The translations under genes and the position numbers were made by a program. Of a DNA stretch of 64,000 nucleotides, positions 1-20,800 are shown one piece after another. The notes beneath the pieces are model-generated. The model worked only from the letters and a program-made list of their open reading frames with translations. It was not told the origin of the DNA and did no database searches. How positions within the stretch are numbered: the first letter of the stretch is position 1; the number at the start of each line of letters is the position of its first letter. Source of the DNA: Mytilus trossulus (Eukaryota); assembly GCF_036588685.1 (NCBI RefSeq), contig NC_086379.1, positions 31,868,001 through 31,932,000 of the forward strand, given 5' to 3'.

Positions 1-3000
1 ATCTGCTTGAGTCATTTGTAATCCAGCATTAGCAAAAGGTGGGATGTTTAACTTTAGTTTGCAATCTTCAACTTCTTTATGAATATTAAAACCCTTGTCT
101 GCCATAATACCATCACCTTCCTTGATATGACCATGTTGTACTAAGTTTTGTAACATCTTCTTTAATCCTGATTGTTCAAATATATCTTTGTCTGATATAG
201 CACCAGAAAATAAACATGAAGTAAATAAAAGTGACCCTCTAGGATCAACTGCTACCAAAGCTTTTAAAGTGTTTGTAGACTTGTAATTTGAATATGACTG
301 TGACTGTGCATGCAGAGAAGAAGGCTTCTGTATTTTGATTTCTGTACCATCAATTATTGCCAAAGTATTAGGAAAATCCCTTTTATAATTTTCAGGCATA
401 TTTTTAATAATCATGTCACGTGGCGGCCAAGTACATACTGCTCCAAACCTTAAGTACATGAAATTTATCCAGTCACAAAAAAGTGAACTACAGTCTTGTG
501 TAGATATTTGAAATCTGTATCCCAAATCTGTAAAGTCCAAATTATTTCTCAATTTACATAATGTAAAAAAAAACTGGTCCTTGATTTTTATCTTTATCTT
601 CATATTCTTTGACATTTTTAAGGGATAATTTGATGAATCTGGCACTAAAAACTTAAAAACTGCATTAAATTCAGTATTGTTAAAGCCACTGTAGTATCTC
701 AACATTTTGTCATCTTTAGTAAAGTTTTCAGCTGAAAAAATTGACCTTTCCCTCTGTTGAACTTGAAATATTTTCTGGGATTTCCTGGATGCATTATTCA
801 ATGTTAGCTTTTCATTATCCAATATTTTTCTTGCAAGGTCTCTCTCCAAAATCTCCTTTTGCACTGTTAGAGACAGAATATCAATTGGGTCAGCCCCTGA
901 AATATAAAAAATATCATTAGATTCTTGTGACTTTTAAATATATGTTTGTAAAAGAAAAAAAAGTTGGAATCTGATTTTTTTTAGTTTCAAACAGATCAGA
1001 AAAAAATTGATTTGATGATGTTGTTTTGTCTATCAGTTCATAGACAAAATTTATTGATGTGAGCCTGATGTCGTCAACTTTATTTCATGGTTTACTCCAG
1101 TATAAAAGAGAATTTAGAATTAAATTATGAGAAAAAACTGATATATTTTATCTGTCAATTAGTAATAACATTAAATATTGTGGTGCAGACTTAAAAATAA
1201 AAAAAAATTGTAAGGGTTCCGCAGAACCCAGTGTTTCGCCTATTTTTACTATTAATCTCAGGCTCAACAAAAATGAGGCAAAAAATCAATGAAAATATTC
1301 CTCTTGATACTATCTTATGATTGTAAGAAGCTTCTGTCCAAGTTTGGTACAAACCAAGGATAGTTTAAGAAAGTTATTAATTTTTTAAAAACTTTAACCA
1401 GAGTGAATGTCATGTTTCCCCGCAGAAAAACTAAGTCCATGTAAGAGTAGAATACAGAAAAAATGGATTTATTTTTTTACAAAATTTACTTCTGGATACT
1501 ATTTTATGATCATAAACAAGCTTCTGTCCAAGTTTTGTACAAATCAAGTATAGTTTAAGAATGTTATTAAAATTCGAATACACAGAGTGAATGTAATGTT
1601 TCCCTGCAGAAAAAACTAAGTCCATTTATAAGTAAAATACGGAAAAAAATGGAACTTTATTTTTTTTAAATTTACTTCTGGATACTATCTTATGATCATA
1701 AGGCTAGACAAAAACCAGTGTGCACCATTTTTTATGTTATTTTATGAATGGCTATTATCTATTTTGAATTTATTGAACCATAAAACTAATTTTTGACTCT
1801 TCACATTGAATAATCCGCGAAGCGGATTATGTAAAATGTGAAGAGTCAAAAAATAGTTTTATGGTTCAATAAAATCAAAATAAATTATTGCCATTCATTA
1901 TAAATAAATTTCTATCAAAAATAAGGCTCAAAGACCTTTTAATATTATTTATACTAAAAATAACAACGTACACACATGTTGGCGTATGAATACACAACGT
2001 CAGAGTGGGCGTGTCGCCATCAAAATTGATAACATTGAAAATAAAACTAATAATTTTAACCAATCAGAAGACAGTAAAAACACCAAATTTATTTATTTCT
2101 CCATAAACAGAAAAATAATTTCAGTTATTTCCTTAAATATTAAAATTTTAACAATCCCCTTTCTTTTTAGGCAGACTTTTATTCACAGAGAGAGATAGTT
2201 CCAGTGGAAACTGTTTGTGGAGATTTAGTTTTTCCGAAAGAAAATGGTCAATCTGTTTTATCAGAAAAATACAACACTTTGATAGACACCATTTCAAATG
2301 ATGAAGTAAACATTATAGAAGAACAGACCAGAGAACAAGCTCAATGTGAAAAGTGGTTCAAGGAAAGAGAAAAGAGAATAACAGCATCAAACTTTCATAG
2401 AATTGTCAAAAGAAAAGCTGCAATTAATGACAAGTTCATTCTTTCCATAATGAAGCCAAAGCCTTTCACTAGTAAAGCAACATCATATGGAAGAAACAAT
2501 GAAATAAAAGCTAGAAACTCATATGTTCAAACTTCTGGCCATCATGTTCATGATTGTGGGTTTGTAGTTAACCCGAGGTACCCTTTTATTGGTGCTACTC
2601 CAGATGCCAAAATATGTGACAATGGTGTAACTGGAATTATGGAAATTAAATGTCCATTTAGCCAAAGAGATAACCTAATCACTGACGCAATGCAGGGTGC
2701 AGACTTTTGTTTAGAGTTGTCTGAAAATGGACCGAAATTAAAAATCAGTCATGATTATTTTATTCAGGTACAAGGTCAATTACTTGTAACAGGTTCTCAG
2801 TTTTGTGATTTTGTAGTCTATACAAAGAAGGACATCCATATTGAAAGAATTTATCCAGACAAAGCTGTAATGCAAAACATTCTTAATAAGCTTGCAGACT
2901 TTTATTTTGATCATGTACATTTATAATTTTATTCAGTGTGTAAGAAGTTTCTTGCAGGTTAATTCATTTCATGTTTGACAAAAAAAAATCATTTATAAGA

Positions 3001-6000
3001 ATACTAGTTGTGTCATTGGCATTCATATCACATTCTTATTTATATATTACAATGTTTTAGGTGAAATAAAAAAAATGTACAACTTATATAAATGATAAAA
3101 TGAATCAGAAAAGCATTACTTTAGGAATAAATATATAATTGGAAAATTTTATAGGTTTAATGCAAAGAACTCCTTATCAAGATATTTGATGTTAAGGAAA
3201 TGGCAGGGAAAGGATTTCTCAGACTTTAACCTTATATATTTGGCTTTTGTATTATTTGGGTCACAAATTGTAAGAAAAGAAATCTTCAGTTTGCTTATAT
3301 TTTGTAAATGATCATTTAAATATTTCTATAAAAAGAAAAGTGTGTGATGGGGCAAAATATTTAACCCTATGTCTTAGCTAGGGGAAACGCAAGAAGTTCG
3401 AAAATTTGACAAGGAAAAAAAACTGTTTGCAGGATGTTAAAAGCATAATTTTTAATTATTATATTGGAAGTTAAAGTTGTACCTAACACTTATTTAAGTT
3501 CAGGGGATTAAATCTGTTTTAATCACCTTGCATTGTTAATGAAATATAAAGCTTTTTAATTATCAGAAATAGTGTTTGTCAAACTACTATATCTCTTACA
3601 ATTTTTTTCTCAAGAGATTGGTTCAAGTTTTTTGAAATTTTTATATTTTTTTCAAAGGATCAAAATAAATATTTTGTAAACAAATTTATGAAAATTAAAC
3701 GAGCCAAATTAATTTAAGTCTAGGTGTTGGGTGACACCTAAATTGGTGTCATTTTGGTATATACATGTATAGTACATATAAATGGTTTGTCAAAGAACCC
3801 CTTCTTATTTTTAAGCCTTGGACATTTTTTAAGAATCCCTCTTCTTGCTGACTTCATGTCGAACATTCTTTTTAATTTGTACGATTATTACTTTATCAAG
3901 ATTTTCAGCATACCTAACACTGCAGGGAGAAAACTCTGTAAAATCAGCTAAACGTTTTAATTAACTTGCATTGTTAAGGAAACATTAAGCTTCTCAATGA
4001 TCAAAATTACTGTCTGTCAAACTGCTATGTAAGCAGTGTAAATTTCTGGTAAAATGGTACGGTTGGTTCAAATTTTTAGAAATTTTTATATTTTTGTCAA
4101 TTGATGATCAAAGTTAATACTTTGTCAAAATTTTGTGAAAATTAAACGAGCCAAATTAATTTTAGTAATAGTGTTAGGTTCCACCTTAAAAGTAATTAAA
4201 TTCTGAAAGTGATATATATCAATAAATAAATTTAGAGAAAACTTTAAAAAAAAAAAATCTACTATTTCAAAGTTTAATACAAGGTCAACAATAAAAGAGC
4301 ACTTATTTTATAACAAGATTGATTTTTTTAACAAAATTAAAATGTGTTTGTTTGTTGTACATGCTGTTTTCTGCTTCTTGGTTGGATTGTGGTCTTTCTG
4401 ACGCATACCCCATTTCAACTCACAATTTTATGTTATTGAATCACCTTGCATACTAACAACTGTATTAATAAACAGTACTGATCACAAACTTTGTGTTATG
4501 TCATTTATCATTTGTGTACCAAAAAATTGAACCATCAACAAATGAAAACATCTTTTTGAGAAAGTTTAGTAGTCCTGAAAAGGACTGTTTTTGTAATCAT
4601 TGTCATCCTCTGCTGTACAAATATCAGTCTTAGGCACACATTTCAACTTACATCCTCCTTCTGTTTGTATAGCAACAGTGTTTTCTTTGTTAAAATCTGG
4701 TGATATATTTTCTTTGTTGGAATCTGGTGTTATTTCTGTTGTTTGAATTTCTGATGTTTCACTGAAATAACAAGAAACAGTTAGTCAAAGGGAGACAACT
4801 CGAATTTGTGAAATTATTTTAAGCGATTTCTAATTAAAAAAGAAAGATATATGTAAAAGACCTTTGAAATAGGAGAGGGCCATTTCATAAAAAAATAATG
4901 AATATTGATAAAGGTACCTGTATATTATTTTATTTACAGTAATTTCTTAAACAAAGCTAGTGTGTCATATATTTCTGCATTTGCTTTTTACTTCTGCTCT
5001 AATTTAAAATAAATTAGGGTTTGTTGTTAATTACTGTTAATAGTTTCTTGAAATATTGACATGTCCAGACTTAAGATATAAAATAGGAATATCTTGTTTG
5101 ATTTCCAATGAGACAACTCTGTACATGAAACCAAATGACACAGAAAATTAACGACTGTAGGTCACTGTATAGCCATCAACAACAAGCAAAGTTCATACCA
5201 CATAATCAGCTGTAAAAGGCCCCGAAATGACAAATATTAAGCAAGAAAACAAGGAAACAAATGGATGTTACATGTAGTCCAGATGTATGTCACCTTTTAA
5301 AAACAATCATAACCTGTAATGCTTTATATTTTGGTTTATGGATAAAGTCACTGTATAGTTCAGTATTGATAAAAATGAATGACGGGAGAAAAAAAAAAGG
5401 TTTTTATGGGTTACATATTTATGACCAATTATTATATTTATAAGGGACATATTTTCATAAAATTTGCATCTACCTGTAGATCAATTTTCTTTTCACTTGT
5501 CTGTTTGGTGCAGCTTTTGGGGTTTCAATCACTCTTTTGGTGAGGACTTTTCTTGCTGGTTTTGGAGTTCGTCCATCAAATGGTATCGGGTCGGGATATT
5601 CTTCTGTTGGCCCATTTTTGTTGACAAAATGCTGAAATAGAGAACCTAAAAAATTGTACACTGTATTTACTGGAAGGATTATCAGTTAAATTATGAAACA
5701 GCAGCTTAGATTTGTTTTAAATCAATTAATCAACATCATAAAATGTGTGTGTACCTAGAATATGTGCGTTCTAGTGAGGGTCTATCTGACACATGTAATT
5801 TTTACAGGGTTTTATGTCTTTCTGATAACAAAGTTACCATAACCTGTTGCCAATTCAGTAGGATGAGTCAGTATAAAAAAAGACTTATACAAAAATACAT
5901 GTATGAGACATTTTTTAATCGTTAATGATTTAAACTTGTAATGAACTCTATCAGATCATAAATGCAGTTCAGTCTTTTTACACATTTTTCTTTCATTATC

Positions 6001-7453
6001 AATGAAAAATCTCCACCAAGGACCAAAAGTATATAACATAAACAGTTAAAGGTAATAGTAAATCCTTCAACATGGAACCTTGGGTCAAACTGCTTCAAGT
6101 GCCAATTAGACAATTGGTTGTTCATCACAATGTGTATTTCACAAATATCTTTCATTTCTATGGCCTAATTATTACTGCACTGAACGTTGGGATTGCCTTG
6201 TGCGATGTTTGCCATGGCAAATGTTTCAATAATAGAAATATATTTTGATCATGTTTGTTTTAAAGATAACATATTAATTTTGTTTAAAAAAAAAACAAAT
6301 AGAAAAGAGTAAATAAATAGTGCACTTTAGAGTACTGATTATCATTGTGTATGTGGTTTTAAAGCAAAACAGATAAGAAAACAACTGTGTATATATAAAG
6401 TAAAAAAAGTAATGGCAGTCAAATAAAACATTCATTTCCCTCGACTGTAGGAGATATGAAGATTAATTCACCCTCGAAAAGTCATATGCCCTCGTGAAAT
6501 ATGATTTTTTTGGGGTTAACAAATCTTTATATCTCCCTCAAACACAGGAAATATATGCATAATATTCTACCCCCAGGACGAAGAACACTTCTTTCCAGCT
6601 TAAATAATCCAATTGTCCCACCAGAAAAAAAACTAAGTCCAAATATCTGAAAAATTTCGCCAGCACGGCTCCTAGAAAAAGGGTTTTCAATATATTACGA
6701 GACAAAGACCAAAAGTTTGGGCAAAAGAAAGAAAGTATACCTAGAAGTGAGGGCAGTTCCCCTTATCCTAAAGGAACATACTTCTATGCAAAGAGATAGC
6801 TTTCAAAAATTCATGAATCAAGTAATTCCTTTTGTTAATTGACTTACCCTCTCTTGTGTATGCAAGGCATAATTAAATATTTGTAGTGTACACAAAAGTT
6901 ATCCAAACAGTGGAGGAAGATACAAAGATGATAACTAAAACATGGTTGGAAAATACATTGGACAGTTGGAAGGACTTTGTTACTGTATAATAAATGCTTA
7001 CATTTACATATTTGAAACCAATCTCTTGACAATTTATTTATTTTTATGTATATTCGTGTAAAGTTAATGTGTCGGTCGTGTTTGTGCATGACTTATGTTA
7101 TGACTTTAGGCACACAAAAAAGGGGGGGGGTATGGACTGTCACAGGCTGTGTTTTGGGGTCTAAGACATCAATTTTTGATCAATGGTTATATTTAAAACA
7201 AGAATACTGTTGAATCCTTTCAATTTAAAGTATTTGATTTGTTTCAGTATACCTTTGAACAAATGTAAGTTGCTCTCGTTATCCGTTCAACATTGAACTG
7301 TGAGTGCGGTCTTCCGCAGGCCTTTATCCATTTCAGACATTTTTCTAAGTTGTTTGACTTCTTCGGAAATGGCAAAAAACGTACACCGTCCTGAAGACGA
7401 TCCTCGTACCGACTGTCGGTGTTACAAACACCGTAACAACAGCGCTTTACCAT
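1..7453 (-). CDS. THAP-domain / HTH / DDE (PIF-Harbinger/IS5-like) transposase, 3' end outside the window
   Basis: Exons 7453-7253 (MVKRCCYGVC..FLPFPK..W..C..YICSK), 5631-5474 (HF..PDP, completes THAP), 4761-4652 and 896-<1, all GT-AG with phases 0/2/1. The last exon is an open frame of ~298 codons missing from the ORF track: YYSGF..DQFFFTLCKLR..DLGYRF (HTH), IIDGTEIKIQKP..QSYSNYKSTNTLK..SGAISD..MADKGF..LNIPPF (DDE core). Confidence 0.9.
1210..1700. repeat. Fragment of a Helentron/HINE-like element with ~185-bp internal tandem units
   Basis: About 2.5 copies of a unit containing gatactatcttatgat / aagcttctgtccaagttt / gcagaaaaaactaagtccat. A terminal hairpin gggttccgcagaaccc recurs at ~16210. 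Confidence 0.55.
1748..1895. repeat. ~148-bp fold-back palindrome (non-autonomous element)
   Basis: aatggc..ttgaaccataaaacta..tttgactcttcacatt pairs with aatgtgaagagtcaaa..tagttttatggttcaa..gccatt. The centre is ataatccGCGAAGCggattat. Confidence 0.8.
2171..2926 (+). CDS. YqaJ-like (lambda-exonuclease, PD-(D/E)xK) nuclease, terminal exon; upstream exons not seen in the window
   Basis: Polypyrimidine acceptor ttctttttag ends at 2170, followed by an open frame to TAA at 2926. Motifs WFKEREKRITASNF, YGRNNE, GATPDA, EIKCP, YFIQVQGQL. Confidence 0.9.
   Translation, partial: ADFYSQREIVPVETVCGDLVFPKENGQSVLSEKYNTLIDTISNDEVNIIEEQTREQAQCEKWFKEREKRITASNFHRIVKRKAAINDKFILSIMKPKPFTSKATSYGRNNEIKARNSYVQTSGHHVHDCGFVVNPRYPFIGATPDAKICDNGVTGIMEIKCPFSQRDNLITDAMQGADFCLELSENGPKLKISHDYFIQVQGQLLVTGSQFCDFVVYTKKDIHIERIYPDKAVMQNILNKLADFYFDHVHL
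3471..4190. repeat. Two adjacent copies of a ~270-bp MITE
   Basis: Copies at ~3471-3742 and ~3910-4190 share accttgcattgttaa..aaactgctat..aaaattaaacgagccaaattaattt. Ends acctaacac / gtgttaggt are inverted. Confidence 0.6.
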
Positions 7454-8042
7454 AATTGACCAAAATGTACACTCAGACAATTTCAGGCAGACGTCATTGT
7501 TTGTCTGAGTCTTGTTGTAGCAACAAAAATACGCGCGCGCATCTGCGATTTCATTGGTCGATAAATTATTATGGGCGGGGCGGCGATAGGTGAATTAAGT
7601 GATTACAAGTGGCACAATCATCAGACAATTGTTGAATAAACAAACCAATTATAGACTAATGATTTGGTTAAACAAGACATGAGACATCATGATGAGTTAA
7701 ATTTTAGCTACTCTGTGTGAGAAGTAAATAAAATAAAAATCGCCATGACATTCAAATATCTTCAAAGTCAACATGGAAAATATCTTCACATTTTAAAATA
7801 TGTTGCCTTTTTGTTGGAGTTAATATATGCTATACAAACAGACACAATTCACGTGACACAATTACAGTAACACTCAGTTTCGTATCCATTTAAAATAGTT
7901 CTTTAACTGGTACTCCAATACTTCACTTGCCTGCATGTTGTCATCCATCATCGACACTTTTTGCAAGTTCCGTTTGTTCTATACTGTTTAAATTTGTAAA
8001 AAATCCTCCATATAGTGACTATAGTTTATTCATATTTTATAA

Positions 8043-8160
8043 TGGGGCCGGATCGACTTGGGGCAGGATCGACGTGGGCCAGATCTACTTGGGCCGGATA
8101 GACTTTGGGCCGGAATGACTTGGGGCTGGATCGATTTGGGGCCGGAACGACCTGATACCT
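8043..8160. repeat. ~16-bp GC-rich tandem repeat (GGGGCCGGATCGACTT)n, probably a transposon subterminal array
   Basis: About 7 degenerate units ending in ggaacgacctgatacc. Confidence 0.65.
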
Positions 8161-8899: not shown

Positions 8900-11800
8900 A
8901 TGACCTCTTTTGTATTATTAGGAATTATTGATGAGCCATGTAGTTCCTTACAGATAGATTTTTCATCAAGTAAAATAGGCGGAAATCCCGTAAGATTTAT
9001 CTCAATATATTATGAAAAGGTGTTCCCTGTCGGAAAGTAAAAATGGTATCGGGTTCGTTCGCACCCTATTTTTATCCATATTTTTTAAAATACACATATT
9101 TCATTGTTAGATTTGCTTAGAAGTATAAATCAAAACATTTATACTTTCATGAATATTTTGAAAAATATTTTGTTCATGATTAGTTGATTGAAAACATGAA
9201 TTGTTTATTGTATTTACATTGGTAAACTGAGCGAATGTGGGACAACTCGGCCCGGAGACAACTCGGTCCAAATAATAAGTCAACTCGGTCCACCTATATC
9301 AATGTATATAAAGTTAATTTTGATAAAGACAACATTGACTGTCTATAAAGTCATCTTGAACCATTTTAATGCTAACTCAGACTAACTTAAAAAGAGAATT
9401 TGAACTGATTTTAAAACATCTGGTAAATGCTGGTATCAATGCCAATAGAGTTGGTTAATAAAAAACAATTTACATTTATTTTTCATAGAATTTTCATTTT
9501 ATTCATTATAAAAAGATCGATATTCTGACCATCATGACTGTAAGTAAATATTCATACAAAATTCCCTTGATGTCAAAAGAGATGGCAAAAAAAGAGTTTT
9601 CCTGTTGAATAAAACCCAGAACTATTGCAAACTATTTTGAAGCAATATCCCACAAAGAAATAACGTAATTGCCGTAGACTGAAAATTCTAATGCAATTTG
9701 GATGTAACAATTTTTTTCATTGGCTAAAAGTGGCCGTCAAATCCACAGTTGACCAGGCGTAACTAAGGAGGGACCCGCCATTTTGAATTGATGAATCAAC
9801 AAATGTTCGATAACTACTATATAATCGAAAATAAAACAACACCTACCTCGAATTCGCCGTTTTAATGTAATTTTATCCGAATTTGAAGCGTACAAGTAAC
9901 GTCATAACCTCCAGCTTGTAAGTTTTCATTTGTATGACGTCACGTTTAGCCATGATGTCTTTGTGCCAAAATCATTCATGAAGATTCGCGGATTTTTTTT
10001 AATCTGACAAATTTAGACATTTTTTCAAGTTTTATCGTATTTTTTCTTTTTGTAGTGCATTAGAATCGGAATAACAGTACTGTAGTTGAAGAGTTGCCAC
10101 CGTCAATTTTGATTTGACGGTCGCAAATCTCCGTTTTACTGTCTCCGCTACGCGTCGCCAGTAAAACTGCATTTGCGACCGTCAAATCTACAATTGACGG
10201 TGGCAACTCTTCAACTACAGTACTGTTATTCCTTAAATCCCCTAATTGACAGTAGAGCAATTTGATTGGATATAACGAATTGACATCATGTGATTTTGAC
10301 GCCATTGAAATTTTAATGTAAACAAACAAGGTCAGAAGGTTCAGTATGGAACAGCATCATACATATAGTTACTGACAAACAATTACGAGTTATTAAGCTT
10401 GACAATGCATGGTTATAAAAAATGAAAGCTAAGTCTACAGAAAAAATTAGAAAAAAATAGCCTTAGTATAACGACTTATCATTACACCTGGATATCCAGA
10501 GCAAAATTTTGAAAATAGTTATTTTCATTTTTTTCATATTTATTCACTATTATATAAATTATTTGGATTCAGTCTGAAGTAAAAGATTTTCTGTCATCAT
10601 AAACTTTATCAAACCTACATGGAATTTTATGAAATTTCAACAAAAGCTTGATAATGTCCAAAATACATTATCATGATTATACAGAGCAATTATTTTTATA
10701 CGACCGCAAATTTTGAAAAAAATTTCGTCGTATATTGCTATCACGTTGGCGTCGTCGTCGTCCGAATACTTTTAGTTTTCGCACTCTAACTTTAGTAAAA
10801 GTGAATAGAAATCTATGAAATTTTAACACAAGGTTTATGACCATAAAATGAAGGCTGGTATTGATTTTGGGAGTTTTGGTCCCAACATTTTAGGAATTAG
10901 GGGCCAAAAAGGGCCCAAATAAGCATTTTCTTGGTTTTCGCACTATAACTTTAGTTTAAGTTTATAGAAATCTATGAAATTTTGACACAAGGTTTATGAC
11001 CACAAAAGAAAGGTTGGGATTGATTTTGGGAGTTTTGGTTTCAACAGTTTAGGAATTAGGGGCCAAAAAAGGGCCCAAATAAGCATTATTCTTGGTTTTT
11101 GCAAAATAAATTTAGTTTAAGTATATAGAAATCAATGAAATTTAAACACAATGTTTATGACCACAAAAGGAAGGTTGGTATTGATTTTGGGAGTTTCGGT
11201 CCCAACAGTTTAGGAATTAGGGGCCAAAAAGGGACCCAAATAAGCATTTTTCTTGGTTTTCGCACCATAGCGTTAGTATAAGTAAATAGAAATCTATGAA
11301 ATTTAAACACAAGGTTTATGACTATAAAAGGAAGGTTGGTATTGATTTTGGGAGTTTTGGTCCCAACAGTTAAGGAAAAAGGGGCCCAAAGGGTCCAAAA
11401 TTAAACTTTGTTTGATTTCATCAAAATTGAATAATTGGGGTTCTTTAATATGCCGAATCTACATGATCTAACTGTGTATGTAGATTCTTAATTTTTGGTC
11501 CCGTTTTCAAATTGGTCTACATTAAGGTCCAAAGGGTCCAAAATTAAACTTAGTTTGATTTTAACAAAAATTGAAACCTTGGGGTTCTTTGATATGCTGA
11601 ATCTAAAAATGTACTTAGATTTTTGATTATTGGCCCAGTTTTCAAGTTGGCCCAAATCAAGGTCCAAAATTAAACATTGTTTGATTTCATCAAAAATTGA
11701 ATAATTGGGGTTCTTTGATATGCCAAATCTAACTGTGTATGTAGATTCTTAATTTTTGGTCCAGTTTTAAAATTGGTCTAAATTAAAGTGCAAAGGGTCC

Positions 11801-14800
11801 AAAATTAAACTAAGTTTGATTTTAACAAAAATTAAATTCTTGGGCCTCTTTGATATGCTGAATCTAAACATGTACTTAGATTTTTGATTATGGGCCCAGT
11901 TTTCAAGTTGGTCCAAATCAGGATCTAAAATTATTATATTAAGTATTGTGCAATAGCAAGTCTTTTTAATTGCACAGTATTGTGCAATGGCAAGAAATAT
12001 CTAATTTCACAATATTGTGAAATAGCAAATTTTTTTTTAATTAAGAGTTATCTTTCTTTGTCCAGTATAGTTAGCAAGAAATATCTGCAAGAATTTTTTT
12101 TAATTGGAGTTATCTTTCTTTGTCCATAATCAACTTAAATCTTTGTTATATACAATATACAATGTATATTCACTTTTTCTACCAACTGATAAATTTAAAT
12201 AATCTTTACCATTCAGTGATAACAAGCAGTTTTTTTACATCTTAATATTTTATGATGTATTTAAATGAGTAGTAATTGTTGCAAACTTCATTAGAATATT
12301 CTAATTGAAATTAGTTTTGGAATAAGGGAAAGGGGGATGTGAATAAAAAATTGGGTTCAATTTTTCTCATTTGAAATTTCATAAATAAAAAGAAAATTTC
12401 TTCAAACATTTTTTTGAGAGGATTAATATTCAACAGCAGTGAATTGCTCTAAGAGAAAACAAAAATTTTAAGTTCATTTGAATACATTCATTCTGTGTCA
12501 GAAACCTATGCTGTGTCAACTATTTAATCACAATCCAAATTTAGAGCGGAATCCAGCTTGAATGTTGTGTCCATACTTGCCCCAACCGTTCAGGGTTCAA
12601 CCTCTGCGGTCGTATAAAGCTACGCCCTGCGGAGCATCTGGTTCTATATTCTAAAGATAAATTAACTTTAGTCACTGTGTATCATCAGTACAGCTGATAT
12701 TGGTACTAACCAAGTAGGCATGATCGATTTTGACCCTACAAGGTAACAAAAATCTTTGTTTTGCTTTATCAATATTGAAAAATAAATTTCTTAAGATTTG
12801 CAAATCCTGCTCCCAAATAATTTTCACATCGATTTTTTCCTATTTATAAAACAACTTTGATATTCTTATTAAAACAATTAACTTGTAAATGCACAAATAG
12901 TTGTGAATGTCAACACCGACTTTCAATTTCTATACAGTTATCGAGACATTTATCATGTTTACATGTTTTATCTGAAAGAAAGCTAATACAGGACAAAAGT
13001 AATAGTTTCCAATCAAAACCTACCTGTGATTACTCATTTCTTGAAATTTTTGGGTAATAAATGAGTATGAAAATAAAGTTGTTGTGTACAGTGAAGGCAA
13101 CTTAACTTTGCACCGTACAGAAGGATTTATGTGGTCAGCTAAACACTGTACACAATGCTTCATTTCTTAATAAAATAAAAAAAATTAAAAATATGCATGA
13201 AAGATTTCAATGCCAATTATTGAAGCAGCCATATTTTCAATGAATATAGAATTATATCGGATGAGACGAGAGTCAACTTTGACAAGAATTTTTACATGTT
13301 TTTATACGACCGCAAAAATTGAAATTTTTTTTCGTTGTATATTGCTATCACGTTGTCGTCTGCGTCGTCCTCGTTGTCCGAATACTTTTAGTTTTCACAC
13401 TCTAACTTTAGTAAAAGTGAAAAGAAATCTATGAAATTTTAACAAAAGGTTTTTGACTACACACAAAAGGAAGGTTGGGATTGATTTTGGGAGTCTTGAT
13501 CCCAACATTTTAGGAATTAGGGACCAAAAAGGGCCCAAATAAGGATCTTCTTGGTTTTTGCACAATAACTTTAGTTTAAATGAATAGAAATCTATGAAAT
13601 TTTGACACAAGGTTAATGACCACAAAAGGAAGGTAGGGATTGATTTTGGGAGTTTTGGTTCTAACAGTTTATGAATAAGGGGCCAAAAAAGGGGCCAAAT
13701 AAGCTTTTGTTTATATAGATTAGACCGTTGGTTTTCCCGTTTGAATGGTTTTACACTAGTAATTTTGGGGCCCTTTATAGCTTGTTGTTCGGTGTGAGCC
13801 AAGGCTCCGTGTTGAAGGCCGTACTTTAACCTATAATGGTTTAATTTTTAAATTGTTATTTGGATGTTGAGTTGTCTCATTGGCACTCACACCACATCTT
13901 CCTATATCTATTATTCTTGGTTTTTGCACAATAACTTTAGTTTAAGTAAATAGAAATCAATGAAATTTAAACCCATGGTTTATGACCTCAAAAGGAAGGT
14001 TGGTATTGATTTTGGGAGTTAGGGTCCCAACAGTTTAGGAATAAGGGGCCAAAGGGTCCAAAATTAAACTTTGTTTGATTTCATAAAAAAATAAATAATT
14101 GGAGTTCTTTGATATGCTGAATTTAAGTGTGTAAATAGATTCTTTATTTTTGGTTCTGTTTTTAAATTGGTCTACATTAAGCCTAAGGTCCAAAGGGTCC
14201 AAAATTAAACTTAGTTTGATTTTGACAAAAATTGAATCCTTGGGGTTCTTTGATATGCTGAATCTAAAAATGTACTTAGATTTTTACTTATTGGCCCAGT
14301 TTTCGAGTTGGTCCAAATCGAGGTTCAAAATTAAACTTTGTTTGATTTCATAAAAAATTTAATAAATGGGGTTCTTTGATATGCCAAATCTAACTGTGTA
14401 TGTAGATTTTTTTTTTTGGTCCTGTTTTCAAATTGGTCTACATTAAAGTCCAAAGGGTCCAAAATTAAACTTAGTTTGATTTTAACAAAAATTGAATTTT
14501 TGAGGTTCTTTGATAATATGCTGAATCCAAACATGTACTTAGATTTTTGATTATGGGCCCAGTTTTCAAGTTGGTCCAAATCAGGATCCAAAATTATTAT
14601 ATTAAGTATTGTGCTATAGCAAGAAATTTTCCATTGCACAGTACTCAGCAATAGCAAGAAATCTTCAATTCCACAGTTATGTGCAATAGCAAGAAATTTT
14701 CAATTGCACAGTATTGCACAATAGCAAGAAATCTTCAATAAAACAGTATTGTGCAATAGCAAGTATTTTCAATTGCACAGTATTGGACAATATTGTGCAA

Positions 14801-17800
14801 TAGCAAGAAATTTCAATTGGAGTTATCTTTCTTTGTCCAGAATAGTAGTTGAATCAACTTAAATCATTGTTTTATACAATATACAATGTATTTTCACTTT
14901 TACTACCAACTGATAAATTAAAACAATCTTTACCATTCAGTGATATCAAGCACTTTTTTTACATTTTAATATTTTATGATGTATTTAAATGAGTAATTAT
15001 TGTTGCAAACTCCATTAGAAATTTGAATTGAGATCGGTTTTGGAATAAAGGAAAGGGGGATGTGAAAAAAAATTGGGGGAGGGGGGGGGGGTCAATTTTT
15101 CTCATTTGAAATTTCATCAAAAAAAAAAAGAAAACTTCTTCAAACATTTTTTTGAGAGGATTAATATTCAACAGCATAGTGAATTGCTCAAAGGCAAAAC
15201 AAAAATTTTAAGTTCATTAGACCACATTCATTCAGTGTCAGAAACCTATGCTGTGTCAACTATTTAATCACAATCCAAATTTAGACCTGAATCCAGCTTG
15301 AATGTTGTGTCCATACTTGCCCCAACCGTTCAGGGTTCAATCCCTGCGGTCGTATAAAACTGCGCCCTGCAGAGCATCTGGTTAAGTACATGTAGTTGTT
15401 CTTGTTTTTGAAAAATAATGAGACATCTTTAATCATCAACCTACGACCAAATCATTTCTTAAAACAACAGTTATGTTTAGATTGAAGTACACATTGATAT
15501 TATGTGAACAAAACAAAGATTTTCGTTACAGTGTAAGGTCAAAATCGCTCACGCTTGGTTAGTACATTTGTACCTATATCCGCTGTACAATGATACACAG
15601 TGTTAGTTTTCTTGTTTTAATTGTTTTACATTGTCACAATATCTGGGCCTTTTATAGCTGACTATGCGGTATGGGCTTTGCTCATTGTTGAAGCCCATAC
15701 AGTGACCTATAGTTCTTAATTTCTGTGTCATTTTGGTCTCTTGTTGACAGTTGTCTCATTGGCAATCATACCACATCTTCTTTTTTTATAATTAGTTTCA
15801 CACTAACATGACTAAACAATTAGATACAGTCTGCGGTTAAGTTTGTTTCACATCAAATACTTTGTCAAACCTCCATAGAATTTTATGAAACTGTAGGAGA
15901 AGCTTTTTTATGATTAAAAAATAATGTTTTTTTCATTTTCAGTTTATTTCTAATACATTTTTAGATGAAAAGTTATTTTTTTACAGTTAACATTTACAGA
16001 CAGTCTGGGATTAACTTTTTATGGCATGATACTGATAAGATTGTAATTATATAAACCTTCATGGATTTTTATGAAACTTAAACAGAAGCTAATCTCATAG
16101 ACAAAGAAAAATTTATTTTAAATTATGTATTTTACTGACGAATGGACGATCTCTTTTATAGTGAACATTACACTTTTACACAGACAGCATTAATCATGGG
16201 CAAGACACAGGGTTCTGCAGACCCCTTATGAATTTTTAGTTTAACTAGTTATTGCTATACTCCTCAGAAAATATAATGAATATTTGCAAAAGATTTTTTA
16301 CTTTATCATGTTTTAATTTTAGTAAAGACTTTTCATTAAAAAATAAAAGGTTGTTTCCATCTAGGTATTCACCAATGAAAACTCTAAGATAAGACCTAAT
16401 ATGTTATAGAGACTAAACATCTTTTTATTTGTGAAACAAATTCTTACAGCAGTAAAAGTTTTCAGTAATCTTTTCCAGGATTGGATAATACCTCAAACAA
16501 ACCCATTATGTGCTGAATGTGATAAACCAATGGTACTGGTTGTACAACTTTACTGTCCATTAGATGGTTCAATATACCACAGGACACTTTATGTATTTAC
16601 ATGTGTCAACTGCAAGGACAATAAGTAAGTATTATGAGTATAATACATTTTTTTCTAGTCTCAATCATGTCAATATTAAAGATATATAGAATCAATTAGA
16701 TTCTTTTAAAATCTCATAACTTTTTAATCATTCTAACTCAATAGTTGTTTTTGGCAAAACCTTAATGCTCTTGCACAAATTGCACCTAATATACTTTATT
16801 TTGCCTTTTTAGCTTTTTTCTTTTAACCTTCACTGATGAGTCTTTTCAAGACAAAATGTGTGTCTGAGGTTATAAATATTAATCCTTGTATATATCTATG
16901 ATGAGTTTATCTGGGATAACTATAAAGGTTTTAATACTCATAATGGTCATTGTCCATTTGTCTATACATTGTATATGCTATTATAGATTATTGTTTAAAA
17001 ATCAGATCTTCGATAATTTCTGTTTATTTTATTCACAATTTTAATATTTCCAATTTAGAGCTTGACATATTATATGGAACTATAATGTATTAACATGATT
17101 AAAGCCTTATTATTGTTGAATATTGTATAGGTACTTTTTATACTACATTAATTGATTATTTGTGTCATCAGTGGACATATTATATTATTACATAAAATTT
17201 CTTAAGAATTTCAATATTCTTTTAAAAGATGTATTAAATAATTTTGTAAAACAATACCTATTTCAAGAAAAAGAAAATTTTAACCACTTAAATAAGCACA
17301 GATTTCTAGCTACATGTGTGCTGCATAATATTTGTTATTTGCATTTTACATGTTTAAAGGATTATCCAAATAGTATTCACACTAATATTGATAGAATAAT
17401 TAATCCAAGAATTCAAATATAGAAAAAAATCTTTTAGATTAATGACAGACATGACAGAACAACAAATTAATTCACAAACACACATAGCAGATTAGATAAT
17501 TGTTAGTATAATGAAACTGCATGCACCAAGTTGAATGTTCTTTCATTTTTGTCGAGCCTGCAACTTTTGTTGCAGAAAGCTCGACATAGGGATAGTGATC
17601 TGGCGGCGGCGGCTACGGCGGCGGCGGCGTTAGCTCACTTCTTAAAAGCTTTATATTTTAGAAGGTGGAAGACTTGGATGCTTCATACTTTGTATATAAT
17701 TGCTTCATGTTACGAAGTTTCCGTCAGTCACATGTCCAATGTCCTTGACCTCATTTTCATGGTTCAGTGACCACTTGAAAAAAAAGTTCAGATTTTTTGT

Positions 17801-20800
17801 AATGTTGAATTCTCTCTTATTATAAGTAAAAGGATAACTATATTTGGTAAGTGCGTACCTTGCAAGGTCCTCATGTCTGTCAGACAGTTTTCACTTGACC
17901 TCGACCTCATTTCATGGATCAGTGAACAAGGTTAAGTTTTGGTGGTCAAGTCCATATCTCAGATACTGTAAGCAATAGGGCTTGTATATTTGGTGTATGG
18001 AAGGAATGTAAGGTGTACATGTCCAACTGGCAGGTGTCATCTGACCTTGACCTCATTTTCATGGTTCAGTGGTTATAGTTAAGTTTTTGTGTTTTGGTGT
18101 GTTTTTCTCATACTAAATGCAACAGGTCTACTATATTTGTTGTATGGAATGATTGTAAGGTGTACATGTCTAGCGGGCAGATGTCATGTGACCTTGACCT
18201 CATTTTCATGGTTCAGTGGTCAAAGTTAAGTTTTCGAGTTTTGGTCTTTTTATCTAATACTATATATGCCATAGGTCAACTATATTTGGTGTATGGAAAT
18301 ATTTTATATCTTTATGTCAGTCGTGCAGGTTTTATTTGACCGTGACCTCATTTTCACGGTTCATTGCACAGTGTTAAGTTTTTGTGTTTTGGTCTATTTT
18401 TTTTCAACTATACCTAATAGGTCAACTATATATGTTGTATAGAAGCATTGTTAGCTGTACATGTCTGCCTGGCACGGTTCATCTGACCTTGACCTCATTT
18501 TCATGGTTCATTGGTCTTTGTTTAGTTATCTTGATTAATGTTAAGTTTATGTGACAGTTGTAATAAAGCTTTATACTTAGGACTATCAACATAATATCAA
18601 TGATTAGTACAGAAGGCGAGACATTTCAGCGTGTGCACTCTTGTTTAAATCTCAGATTATGTTTGTTGTATTGTCTTTTTAATCATCATCATCATCATCA
18701 TCATCATCATTCAGTTAATGGGAATAAAGTAGAAAATGCAAGGAACTTTTTCTGCACATTCTCAATTTGTATTTTGTATTACCCAATATCATGAATTTAA
18801 TAATGAAGTCATTAGTTTTATATATATTTTATTTTATTTTCAAAAAGATGGACAGTAATACGTCAACAAAGTCTGAGCATAACTGAAAGTAAAACAATAG
18901 AAAAAAAATTACCATCTACAAAAAGTGATGATGATTGGGGTGTTAAAACAGATGATTGGGGAAGTGATATGGATGATTGGGGAGCTGAAGCAGATGATTG
19001 GGGAACAGATGCAGATGATAGGGGAGGAGAATCTAACGTAAATGGTCTAGCTGATAACACATTGGACTTCAGCACAGAACACAAAGATTCATATAGCACA
19101 GAGTCAGTTACTGGTAAAAGTCACGAAGAATGCTTTAGAAGCAATATGAATAACAATCATCAGTTAGTAACCTGCTCAGACTTAAACAAACCTTCAAAAT
19201 CAAGCTTGTTGGTGGAAAACATAGGTAGTGTGAACAATGATGAAGAAGAATTAGTATCAGGATTATCAAATATAGAAGTTGATTCTGAGAATTCTATGAA
19301 TGTCATAGTTGAGGATGATATGGTTGATACAGACAGATTATATGAGGTAATGTCAGTTATAAAAGAGGAATCTAACAGTGTTGACAATACTTTACCTAAT
19401 GAACTGAGTTTACTCTCATTTTATGTCAATGTTTTGGAGGAGCCAGAAGATAGTTTGGATAGAGAAGAGGAAAAACATATAAAACAGTTACTAAAAAGTT
19501 ATGAGAGGGAGCAAGGAGCTGTTGATGAGGAAATGCAGGCAAGGTTTGAATGTTTGTTATTCCTAACTATCTATACAGTCATTGCAAATTGTCAGTTCAG
19601 TTTTCAATGTTCACAAGAATGTCAGACAGGCTCATTTTTTTTTTACAATTTTCAAATTTGTAGTACACATTTCCTAAGTAACAAACATTGAAAAATGATG
19701 TTTAATTCAGATTAGAAAAATTTTCATTGTGAGATGATTATCGGTTAACTAGAAAGGTATAAGACATTGTGACAAAACTAAGTATACCAATAAGTATAGT
19801 TTGCTAACTGGAAAACTAAAGATTAGAACATTGAAAAAACTATTGTTACAAGGTACATTTAACTCGAGAACATGAAGGAAGTATAGAAATTAGAATATAT
19901 GAGTTAAAAAGTGCATCCCAGACCTGGACATAATACTGATATGCTACAAGTATATAGAAATATTTAAATGGAGTGAGATAAAGCTTAAAAAAAGATAAAA
20001 TAAAGCAAGAAGAAAAAGCAAACATATATCATATATCATGTATATTGGCACAAAAATTGAAACAAAAATGGTGAAATGATTGAAAAGTTGAAAATGCAAT
20101 TGATAAAAATTCAATATAGATCAATATAGTAGTTACTCAAATGAAAAAAGACAGGCACAGCTCTAGCTATTTTGAAAAGAGGGGTTCCAACAGTGATTCA
20201 ACCCCCAGTACACCTTGAAACATTCACATATAAATGAAAAAAAAAATTGAGGAAAGGGCGATCCAACTTCTGGATATTTATATTTTCGTTGGTTAAAAAG
20301 CTTAACAAGTAGTGTTCACAAATAATTATTTTCTTTCAGAGGCAATAGTAGTGCTGGTGAGAAATATGAGAAAGCAAATCGGGCTGATGATTATTTTCAT
20401 AAATTTTCCAAGAGAATAGGAAGATATCCACCACAGATAATTAGGTCAGTTTATTTAATTTAAAAAAAAATAAATACAAATCATAAAGGTGTTTATGTCA
20501 AAAGAATTTGACTTATTAACATATAAAAAACTTAACAGTTCATATATGGTGAAGTATCATCTATGATAAACTGAAGTTGGTGACAGCTGTTTAGTAAGCT
20601 AACATCAATGTTATTATTTGATCTCTGGTGGATAGTTGTTGTATTGGCTATCATACCAAGTATCATTTTAGCTTTCAGTGGTAAGATTTGTATATGCCTG
20701 CTAAGTTAAAATCTTTCCACTCCAATAAGGAGATATGGTATGCTTGTCAATGATATTGCATATAAACTTTCTCACAGTGTATCATCAGTACACCGGATAT

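Follow-up and report, generated by a model that had tools for sequence, protein, structure and literature searches.

The window analyzed here covers 64,000 nucleotides of the mussel Mytilus trossulus (C7:31,868,001-31,932,000 of a 1.3-Gb genome), and the 20 kb to its left was also included. At its left edge lies an ISL2EU transposable element of 12,932 bp with two genes, a transposase on the reverse strand and a YqaJ nuclease on the forward strand. The two genes are almost certainly interlocked, with the last exon of each placed inside the last intron of the other. A chance arrangement is excluded, since three further families repeat the exon order. We read the element as an intact and recent ISL2EU copy whose interlock likely persists because it cannot be undone by one crossover or one inversion, and likely dampens both genes; we give this reading a probability of about 0.6. 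Coordinates of zero or below lie to the left of the window, and a position on C7 is 31,868,000 plus the coordinate.

Structure of the two genes and of the element

The transposase gene has four exons separated by GT-AG introns, and the joined frame is open over 515 amino acids (aa) with THAP, helix-turn-helix (HTH), and DDE domains.

7253..7453, - strand: transposase exon 1, THAP (Pfam); the ATG is 140 bp inside the right end of the element
5474..5631, - strand: transposase exon 2, 158 nt (RNA contigs, gene model)
4652..4761, - strand: transposase exon 3, 110 nt (RNA contigs, gene model)
897..4651, - strand: transposase intron 3, 3,755 nt, containing the YqaJ last exon
896 to -182, - strand: transposase exon 4, HTH and DDE core (Pfam HTH_Tnp_4, DDE_Tnp_4); 183 bases and the stop codon lie left of the window

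The THAP, HTH, and DDE_Tnp_4 domains were matched by Pfam both on the window exons and on P0020, a model with 99% identity. Across all three junctions the transposase agrees with an independent Mytilus edulis model from NCBI (437 of 440 residues). RNA contigs and reads were taken from four of 24 sequencing runs (X1, X8, X21, and X24), X1 and X8 being from separate studies. A 1,767-nt contig of X1 contains the THAP exon, 269 further letters, and then the DDE exon from 895 to -348. The 269 letters correspond to exons 2 and 3 plus one base, as expected. In X8, exon 2 and position 895 are linked within a contig by 111 letters, the length of exon 3 plus one base. Both contigs skip the YqaJ exon in transposase intron 3, and the RNA contigs extend 349 bases to the left of the window (-348).

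The YqaJ gene also has four exons, three of them in the leftward extension.

-5251..-4962 (C7:31,862,749-31,863,038), + strand: YqaJ exon 1 (homologue mapping, joined frame)
-3335..-3105 (C7:31,864,665-31,864,895), + strand: YqaJ exon 2 (homologue mapping, joined frame)
-1771..-1630 (C7:31,866,229-31,866,370), + strand: YqaJ exon 3 (homologue mapping, joined frame)
-1629..2170 (opening at C7:31,866,371), + strand: YqaJ intron 3, 3,800 nt, containing the whole DDE exon
2171..2926, + strand: YqaJ exon 4, nuclease domain, stop codon included; AATAAA at 3065 and 3126

The interval 2171-2926 holds an open frame of 251 codons after a pyrimidine tract and AG, and matches the Pfam YqaJ domain (PF09588) with an E value of 2.7e-19. 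Its first methionine is well within the domain. The four exons joined at GT-AG sites give an open frame of 472 aa, which has 46% identity over 470 aa to a Haliotis protein (P0002) and is colinear with full-length homologues; the D and ExK motifs align with theirs. In run X1, one contig stops at the donor of YqaJ exon 3; a second, from a point 29 bases before it, goes on into the intron; and the alignment of a third begins at 2171 with its 30th letter. This is indirect evidence, since a splice would be expected to leave such a branch in a graph of 31-mers. The break at 2171 is not explained by DNA variation, because the genomic copies already match from 2088 on. In the stranded run X21 (depth below 4), first mates over both last exons were mostly on the - strand; with standard library chemistry, this is a weak sign that RNA of the + strand crosses the DDE exon.

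An earlier note, written from the letters of the window only, had placed the YqaJ exon in transposase intron 3, and its coordinates proved exact by Pfam and the gene models. It had expected the YqaJ 5' exons to the left of the window, where we found three, and the DDE exon within a YqaJ intron, which intron 3 spans in full. The YqaJ gene almost certainly does not start inside 897-2170; its 5' exons are further left and the joined frame is open. The predicted splicing of the THAP exon to the exon at 896 was seen at the expected lengths in one RNA contig from the THAP exon and in another from exon 2. Both frames are indeed intact, at 472 aa and 515 aa.

The limits of the element (-5338 and 7593, C7:31,862,662-31,875,593) are where similarity to the copies on C2 and C5 begins and stops, the left end being 5,339 bases outside the window. 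Terminal inverted repeats (TIRs) plus a target duplication, which the note had proposed to look for, are present as 12-bp TIRs with an AT duplication at both ends.

1..7593, no strand: part of the element within the window (similarity to C2 and C5 copies; ends matched)
Left of the window: left TIR, 12 bp, preceded by the AT duplication (end patterns)
7582..7593, - strand: right TIR, 12 bp; AT target duplication at 7594-7595
7497..7512, no strand: subterminal inverted repeat, 16 bp, with a partner ~60 bp inside the left end; possibly a transposase-binding or promoter site
1743..2087, no strand: insertion of 345 bp, a hairpin with 64-nt arms, found only in the window copy among the copies compared

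Exact end patterns occur genome-wide at 10 left and 11 right ends, and AATT adjoins the core TIR at eight of the 10 left and all 11 right ends. The window family alone is compatible with a 4-bp AATT duplication too, whereas the C11 sister family, with AAT and then A, fits only a 2-bp duplication. By this comparison of sister families, the reading that fits best is a 12-bp TIR next to an AT target duplication within A|AT|T. That length is inside the 6-259 bp range of ISL2EU. The first letters of the TIR are TC, not GG; they are TG, TC, and AC in the sister families and AG in two families in which the genes lie tail-to-tail. The TIR search was unsuccessful or unclear at the C14 loci and at most tail-to-tail loci. 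The domains, TIRs, and A|AT|T target agree with the proposed ISL2EU identity, and the 345-bp insertion, absent from the other copies compared, bears out the intronic insertions that had been reported.

Three full-length copies with both ends are dispersed in the genome and have different flanks. The window copy is the only one of the three with both frames open; in the other two YqaJ is open and the transposase is broken (128 bp inserted in exon 1; one base deleted in exon 2). Divergence from the four closest copies is 0.3-1.1% in exons and 1.7-3.3% in other sequence. Against five of six other copies, it is 0.3-5.1% in exons and 2.9-9.7% outside them, and against copy C5a it is 0.3% and 1.65%, respectively. 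The ratio of nonsynonymous to synonymous differences per site (pN/pS) is 0.00-0.33 in 11 of 12 gene-by-copy comparisons. Because the exons are less diverged and pN/pS is low, both genes have been kept under selection in a recently mobile lineage. The element thus belongs to a young mobile family with both genes under purifying selection. In the gene model P0015, transposase exons 3-4 from one copy of the family are combined with host-like exons unrelated to them.

Several other repeats were seen in and around the element. The segment 1196-1742 is an internal repeat with ~190-bp subunits, abundant in RNA reads from other loci and inverted outside a related C29 copy; it is probably a separate non-autonomous element. 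A GC-rich short repeat has inverted copies ~480 bp beyond both element ends (7596-8160; in the left flank, L011, about 4165-4660), and the element seems to be inserted within an older inverted-repeat element of ~1 kb. Arrays of repeat units of about 135-160 bp, also found at other loci, lie at 10693-15383 and 17544-18645, and part of the former resembles a repeat in YqaJ intron 3.

The interleaved layout in the mussel genome and in other animals

Among the matches listed, at least 107 transposase-YqaJ loci could be paired, 91 of which are tail-to-tail and 16 of which have the last exons swapped; 38 matches were unpaired. The pairing compared 145 of 150 listed YqaJ matches with 149 of 150 listed transposase matches at a distance of at most 12 kb, second pieces of the same loci being left out; the counts are lower bounds. 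Transposase identity is at least 50% at all 16 swapped loci and at most 45% at all 91 tail-to-tail loci. The paired loci come from many divergent families, and ISL2EU is richly diversified in this genome. Fifteen loci of the swapped group were inspected. Seven have the full order of YqaJ 5' exons, DDE exon, YqaJ last exon, and THAP exon; another seven are decayed and retain parts of it, and one has the DDE exon only. None of the 26 tail-to-tail controls inspected (L089-L114) is interleaved.

The swapped loci fall into four families with 37-58% identity, all of them interleaved. They form one clade with branch support (Shimodaira-Hasegawa-like approximate likelihood-ratio test, SH-aLRT) of 100 in the transposase tree, and of 97 and 99/96 in the YqaJ trees; the L loci in the trees carried the label 'convergent'. 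All four families agree in where the crossing YqaJ intron lies and in its phase, with a phase-0 donor and acceptor. For the crossing transposase intron three families agree in this way, and it was not located in the C11 family. Elements of the sister families are 3.7-9.8 kb long. The layout is an old trait of the whole clade, a point absent from the earlier note.

Two of these families showed further features. The interleaved family of L077-L078 (C11 near 17.72 Mb) is compact, at 3.7 kb, and its transposase ends at a distance of less than 100 nt from YqaJ exon 3, so that an overlap of the mature mRNAs is possible there. On C14, near 72.95, 73.02, and 73.05 Mb, right-end fragments related to the window family (82-88% at the one locus compared) directly adjoin elements of a second interleaved family.

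The clade also takes in public proteins of scallops, pearl oyster, clams, abalone, amphioxus, and five teleosts, as proteins in which the layout is not visible. In a transposase model of the scallop Ylistrum, residues 164-218, just before the DDE exon, match the antisense of the YqaJ last exon (56%, E 5e-13), which suggests that the scallop genes are nested likewise. The antisense peptide, used as a query, matched only P0016 and one 115-aa protein, so the layout evidence outside the mussel genome consists of one gene model. The clade was not found in scans of viral and prokaryotic contigs. In a metagenome scan, six loci of a distant family were found, four tail-to-tail, one without a transposase, and one with both genes on one strand. 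NCBI models P0001 and P0027 of the pipefish Syngnathoides biaculeatus place its YqaJ and transposase among mollusc sequences (45% and 53% identity), a possible case of horizontal transfer judging from the protein sequences; a host exon of the Sec1 family is fused to YqaJ in the pipefish model.

Working, persistence, and origin of the layout

The start codons are 87 bp (YqaJ) and 140 bp (transposase) inside the element ends, so the promoters are likely to be in the termini, within 90-140 bp of the ends. Each polymerase would read the catalytic exon and 3' end of the partner in antisense, and these would be spliced out, before it reaches its own last exon. The primary transcripts would overlap by at least 3.3 kb (-348 to 2926). 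The transposase RNA observed reaches -348, short of YqaJ exon 3 (-1630), and the YqaJ AATAAA at 3065 is far short of 4652; no complementary stretch is therefore predicted between the two mature mRNAs. Any conflict would be confined to nascent transcripts, or to an mRNA against an excised intron. The double-stranded RNA that the earlier note had imagined between the genes is thus not expected between the mature mRNAs and would have to involve nascent RNA or an excised intron. Polymerase collision or self-limitation is plausible here as a hypothetical mechanism. That head-on transcription really dampens expression has, in our estimate, slightly less than an even chance, and it is unlikely that damping is the selected reason for the layout. 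By what is known of the family, cut-and-paste insertion at A|AT|T would be the work of the transposase, and the YqaJ nuclease would process broken ends.

The persistence of the layout can be considered by geometry. Any single crossover between the outer exons gives at least one chimeric protein, whereas a crossover in a tail-to-tail pair swaps whole genes. Deletion is possible: on C10, no last exon of YqaJ was seen in a decayed relative. The proposal that the layout locks the genes together therefore stands against the separation of two intact genes by one crossover, but not against loss by deletion. Geometry speaks against an origin by a single inversion, which was rejected because each gene has kept its strand. 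The order can be reached by tandem duplication of the facing 3' ends or by nested insertion, followed by reciprocal loss.

Several points weigh against our reading. The YqaJ exon 3-4 join is not displayed directly and rests on the 2171 contig and the donor branch, the X1 contig with YqaJ exon 3 extends into intron 2 without splicing, and neither the 1-2 nor the 2-3 exon join appeared in the RNA contigs of the runs examined. Exon depth in X21 is below 4 at the 90% threshold, and X24 has almost no exon coverage. The pN/pS of YqaJ against C5a is 0.77 (four changes). Convergent transcription, according to the available part of PMC11735407, need not repress. The unseen join and the unspliced contig would also suit an exon at 2171 that has no link to the exons on the left, being either a short gene of its own or a passenger insertion. 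This is very improbable given the colinearity with five full-length homologues, the phase-0 donor and acceptor kept in four families, the contig that leaves the genome exactly at 2171 though copies match from 2088, and the lack of a usable ATG ahead of the domain. No more credible is a domesticated gene pair retained by the host. Open frames, low pN/pS, and transcription speak for it, but the three full-length copies are dispersed, with both ends and different flanks, and two have a broken transposase; with 10 left and 11 right ends in the genome, the element is neither single-copy nor stripped of its ends. The earlier suggestion of a young or domesticated copy accordingly holds for its first half, as near-identical copies exist, and not for its second, in view of the TIRs, target duplications, dispersed copies, and different flanks.

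A more serious competitor, which we rate as somewhat less probable than our own reading, is a frozen accident without regulatory effect, which arose once and persists because undoing it takes several steps. The plain order of 91 of the 107 paired loci indicates that interleaving is not needed, a single inversion cannot produce an order in which both strands are kept, and expression is low, so collisions may be rare. Against it, the layout has been kept through four families, probably across molluscs, and entails an obligatory antisense overlap of several kb. The layout could also be a mosaic, in which the YqaJ catalytic exon of another ISL2EU lineage was inserted in the transposase intron and replaced the resident nuclease exon. 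The trees are suggestive of this origin, which we consider doubtful. YqaJ exons 1-2 and the DDE exon group with L095/L098 (96 and 97; joined 100/99), and the alternative to this grouping was rejected (approximately unbiased test, p-AU 0.003). YqaJ exon 4 instead groups with L106-L109 (94-95; 90/94), and L095/L098 have no intron at the crossing YqaJ position. However, grouping exon 4 with L095/L098 is not rejected either (p-AU 0.38 and 0.33), and the L106-L109 support falls as low as 47/89; in L107-L109 the intron lies some 35-40 codons downstream of this position, and L106 lacks one there. Our preferred reading, an intact recent element with a persistent and likely damping interlock, could be extended to a widespread, undescribed lineage in mussels, scallops, clams, abalone, and probably teleosts. 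There the interlock would be a governor, as each gene could be completed only by transcribing across the catalytic exon of its partner and removing it by splicing. This would couple the output of the genes, hide the antisense overlap from the mature mRNAs, and bar partner swaps, the nuclease exon having come from a nested ISL2EU. We regard this extension as improbable at present.

Relation to known elements and significance

Comparisons with published elements follow the available portions of the cited papers. ISL2EU was described with two open reading frames (ORFs), an AT duplication, and a second ORF whose role is unknown (PMC4482050). The mussel element shares with the ISL2EU group (including IS4EU) of the PHIS superfamily the THAP-HTH-DDE transposase, the YqaJ second gene, short TIRs, the AT duplication within A|AT|T, and an animal host (PMC4482050, PMC4122938). 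Its protein sizes resemble those of ISL2EU-11_CGi (534 and 477 aa) and IS4EU-2_DR (475 and 515 aa) (PMC4482050 Table S2). It differs in length, at 12.9 kb against an ISL2EU mean of about 4.8 kb, and in its interleaved genes, where the ISL2EU texts speak only of 'two ORFs' (PMC4482050, PMC4122938). Its TIRs begin with TC, whereas those of ISL2EU usually begin with GG, which is a tendency (PMC4482050). A DDE transposon with a lambda-exonuclease-like accessory nuclease is likewise found in KolobokE (PMC9587614). Two other assignments were rejected: PIF/Harbinger, with its TWA duplication and Myb/SANT second gene, and Spy, with no duplication, an AAA|TTT target, and a single ORF.

Within the same genome, the tail-to-tail ISL2EU families have the same two inward-facing genes, and AAT precedes the TIR where ends were found (L091, L112). 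Their last exons (L089-L114) meet tail-to-tail, whereas those of the window element are interleaved. Interleaved nested host genes and convergent sense-antisense pairs have exons in opposite-strand introns and overlap only in the pre-mRNA. The mussel pair has the same exon-in-intron layout, but sits in one mobile element and travels together. The available portions of PMC4482050, PMC9179366, PMC4122938, PMC5718144, PMC9587614, and PMC3673617 do not mention interleaving. Our literature searches found no description of interleaved ISL2EU genes, although Repbase feature tables for fish and oyster may already record the exon order. The new finding is that four interleaved families form one clade amid mostly plain tail-to-tail ISL2EU loci.

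The layout misleads annotation: in public models, these genes have taken up host exons or antisense sequence of YqaJ by false splicing. With both frames open and under purifying selection, the window copy is a good substrate for studying the role of the ISL2EU YqaJ nuclease. The presence of interleaved and plain families in one genome offers a natural comparison of how layout relates to transposon expression and to the exchange of modules.

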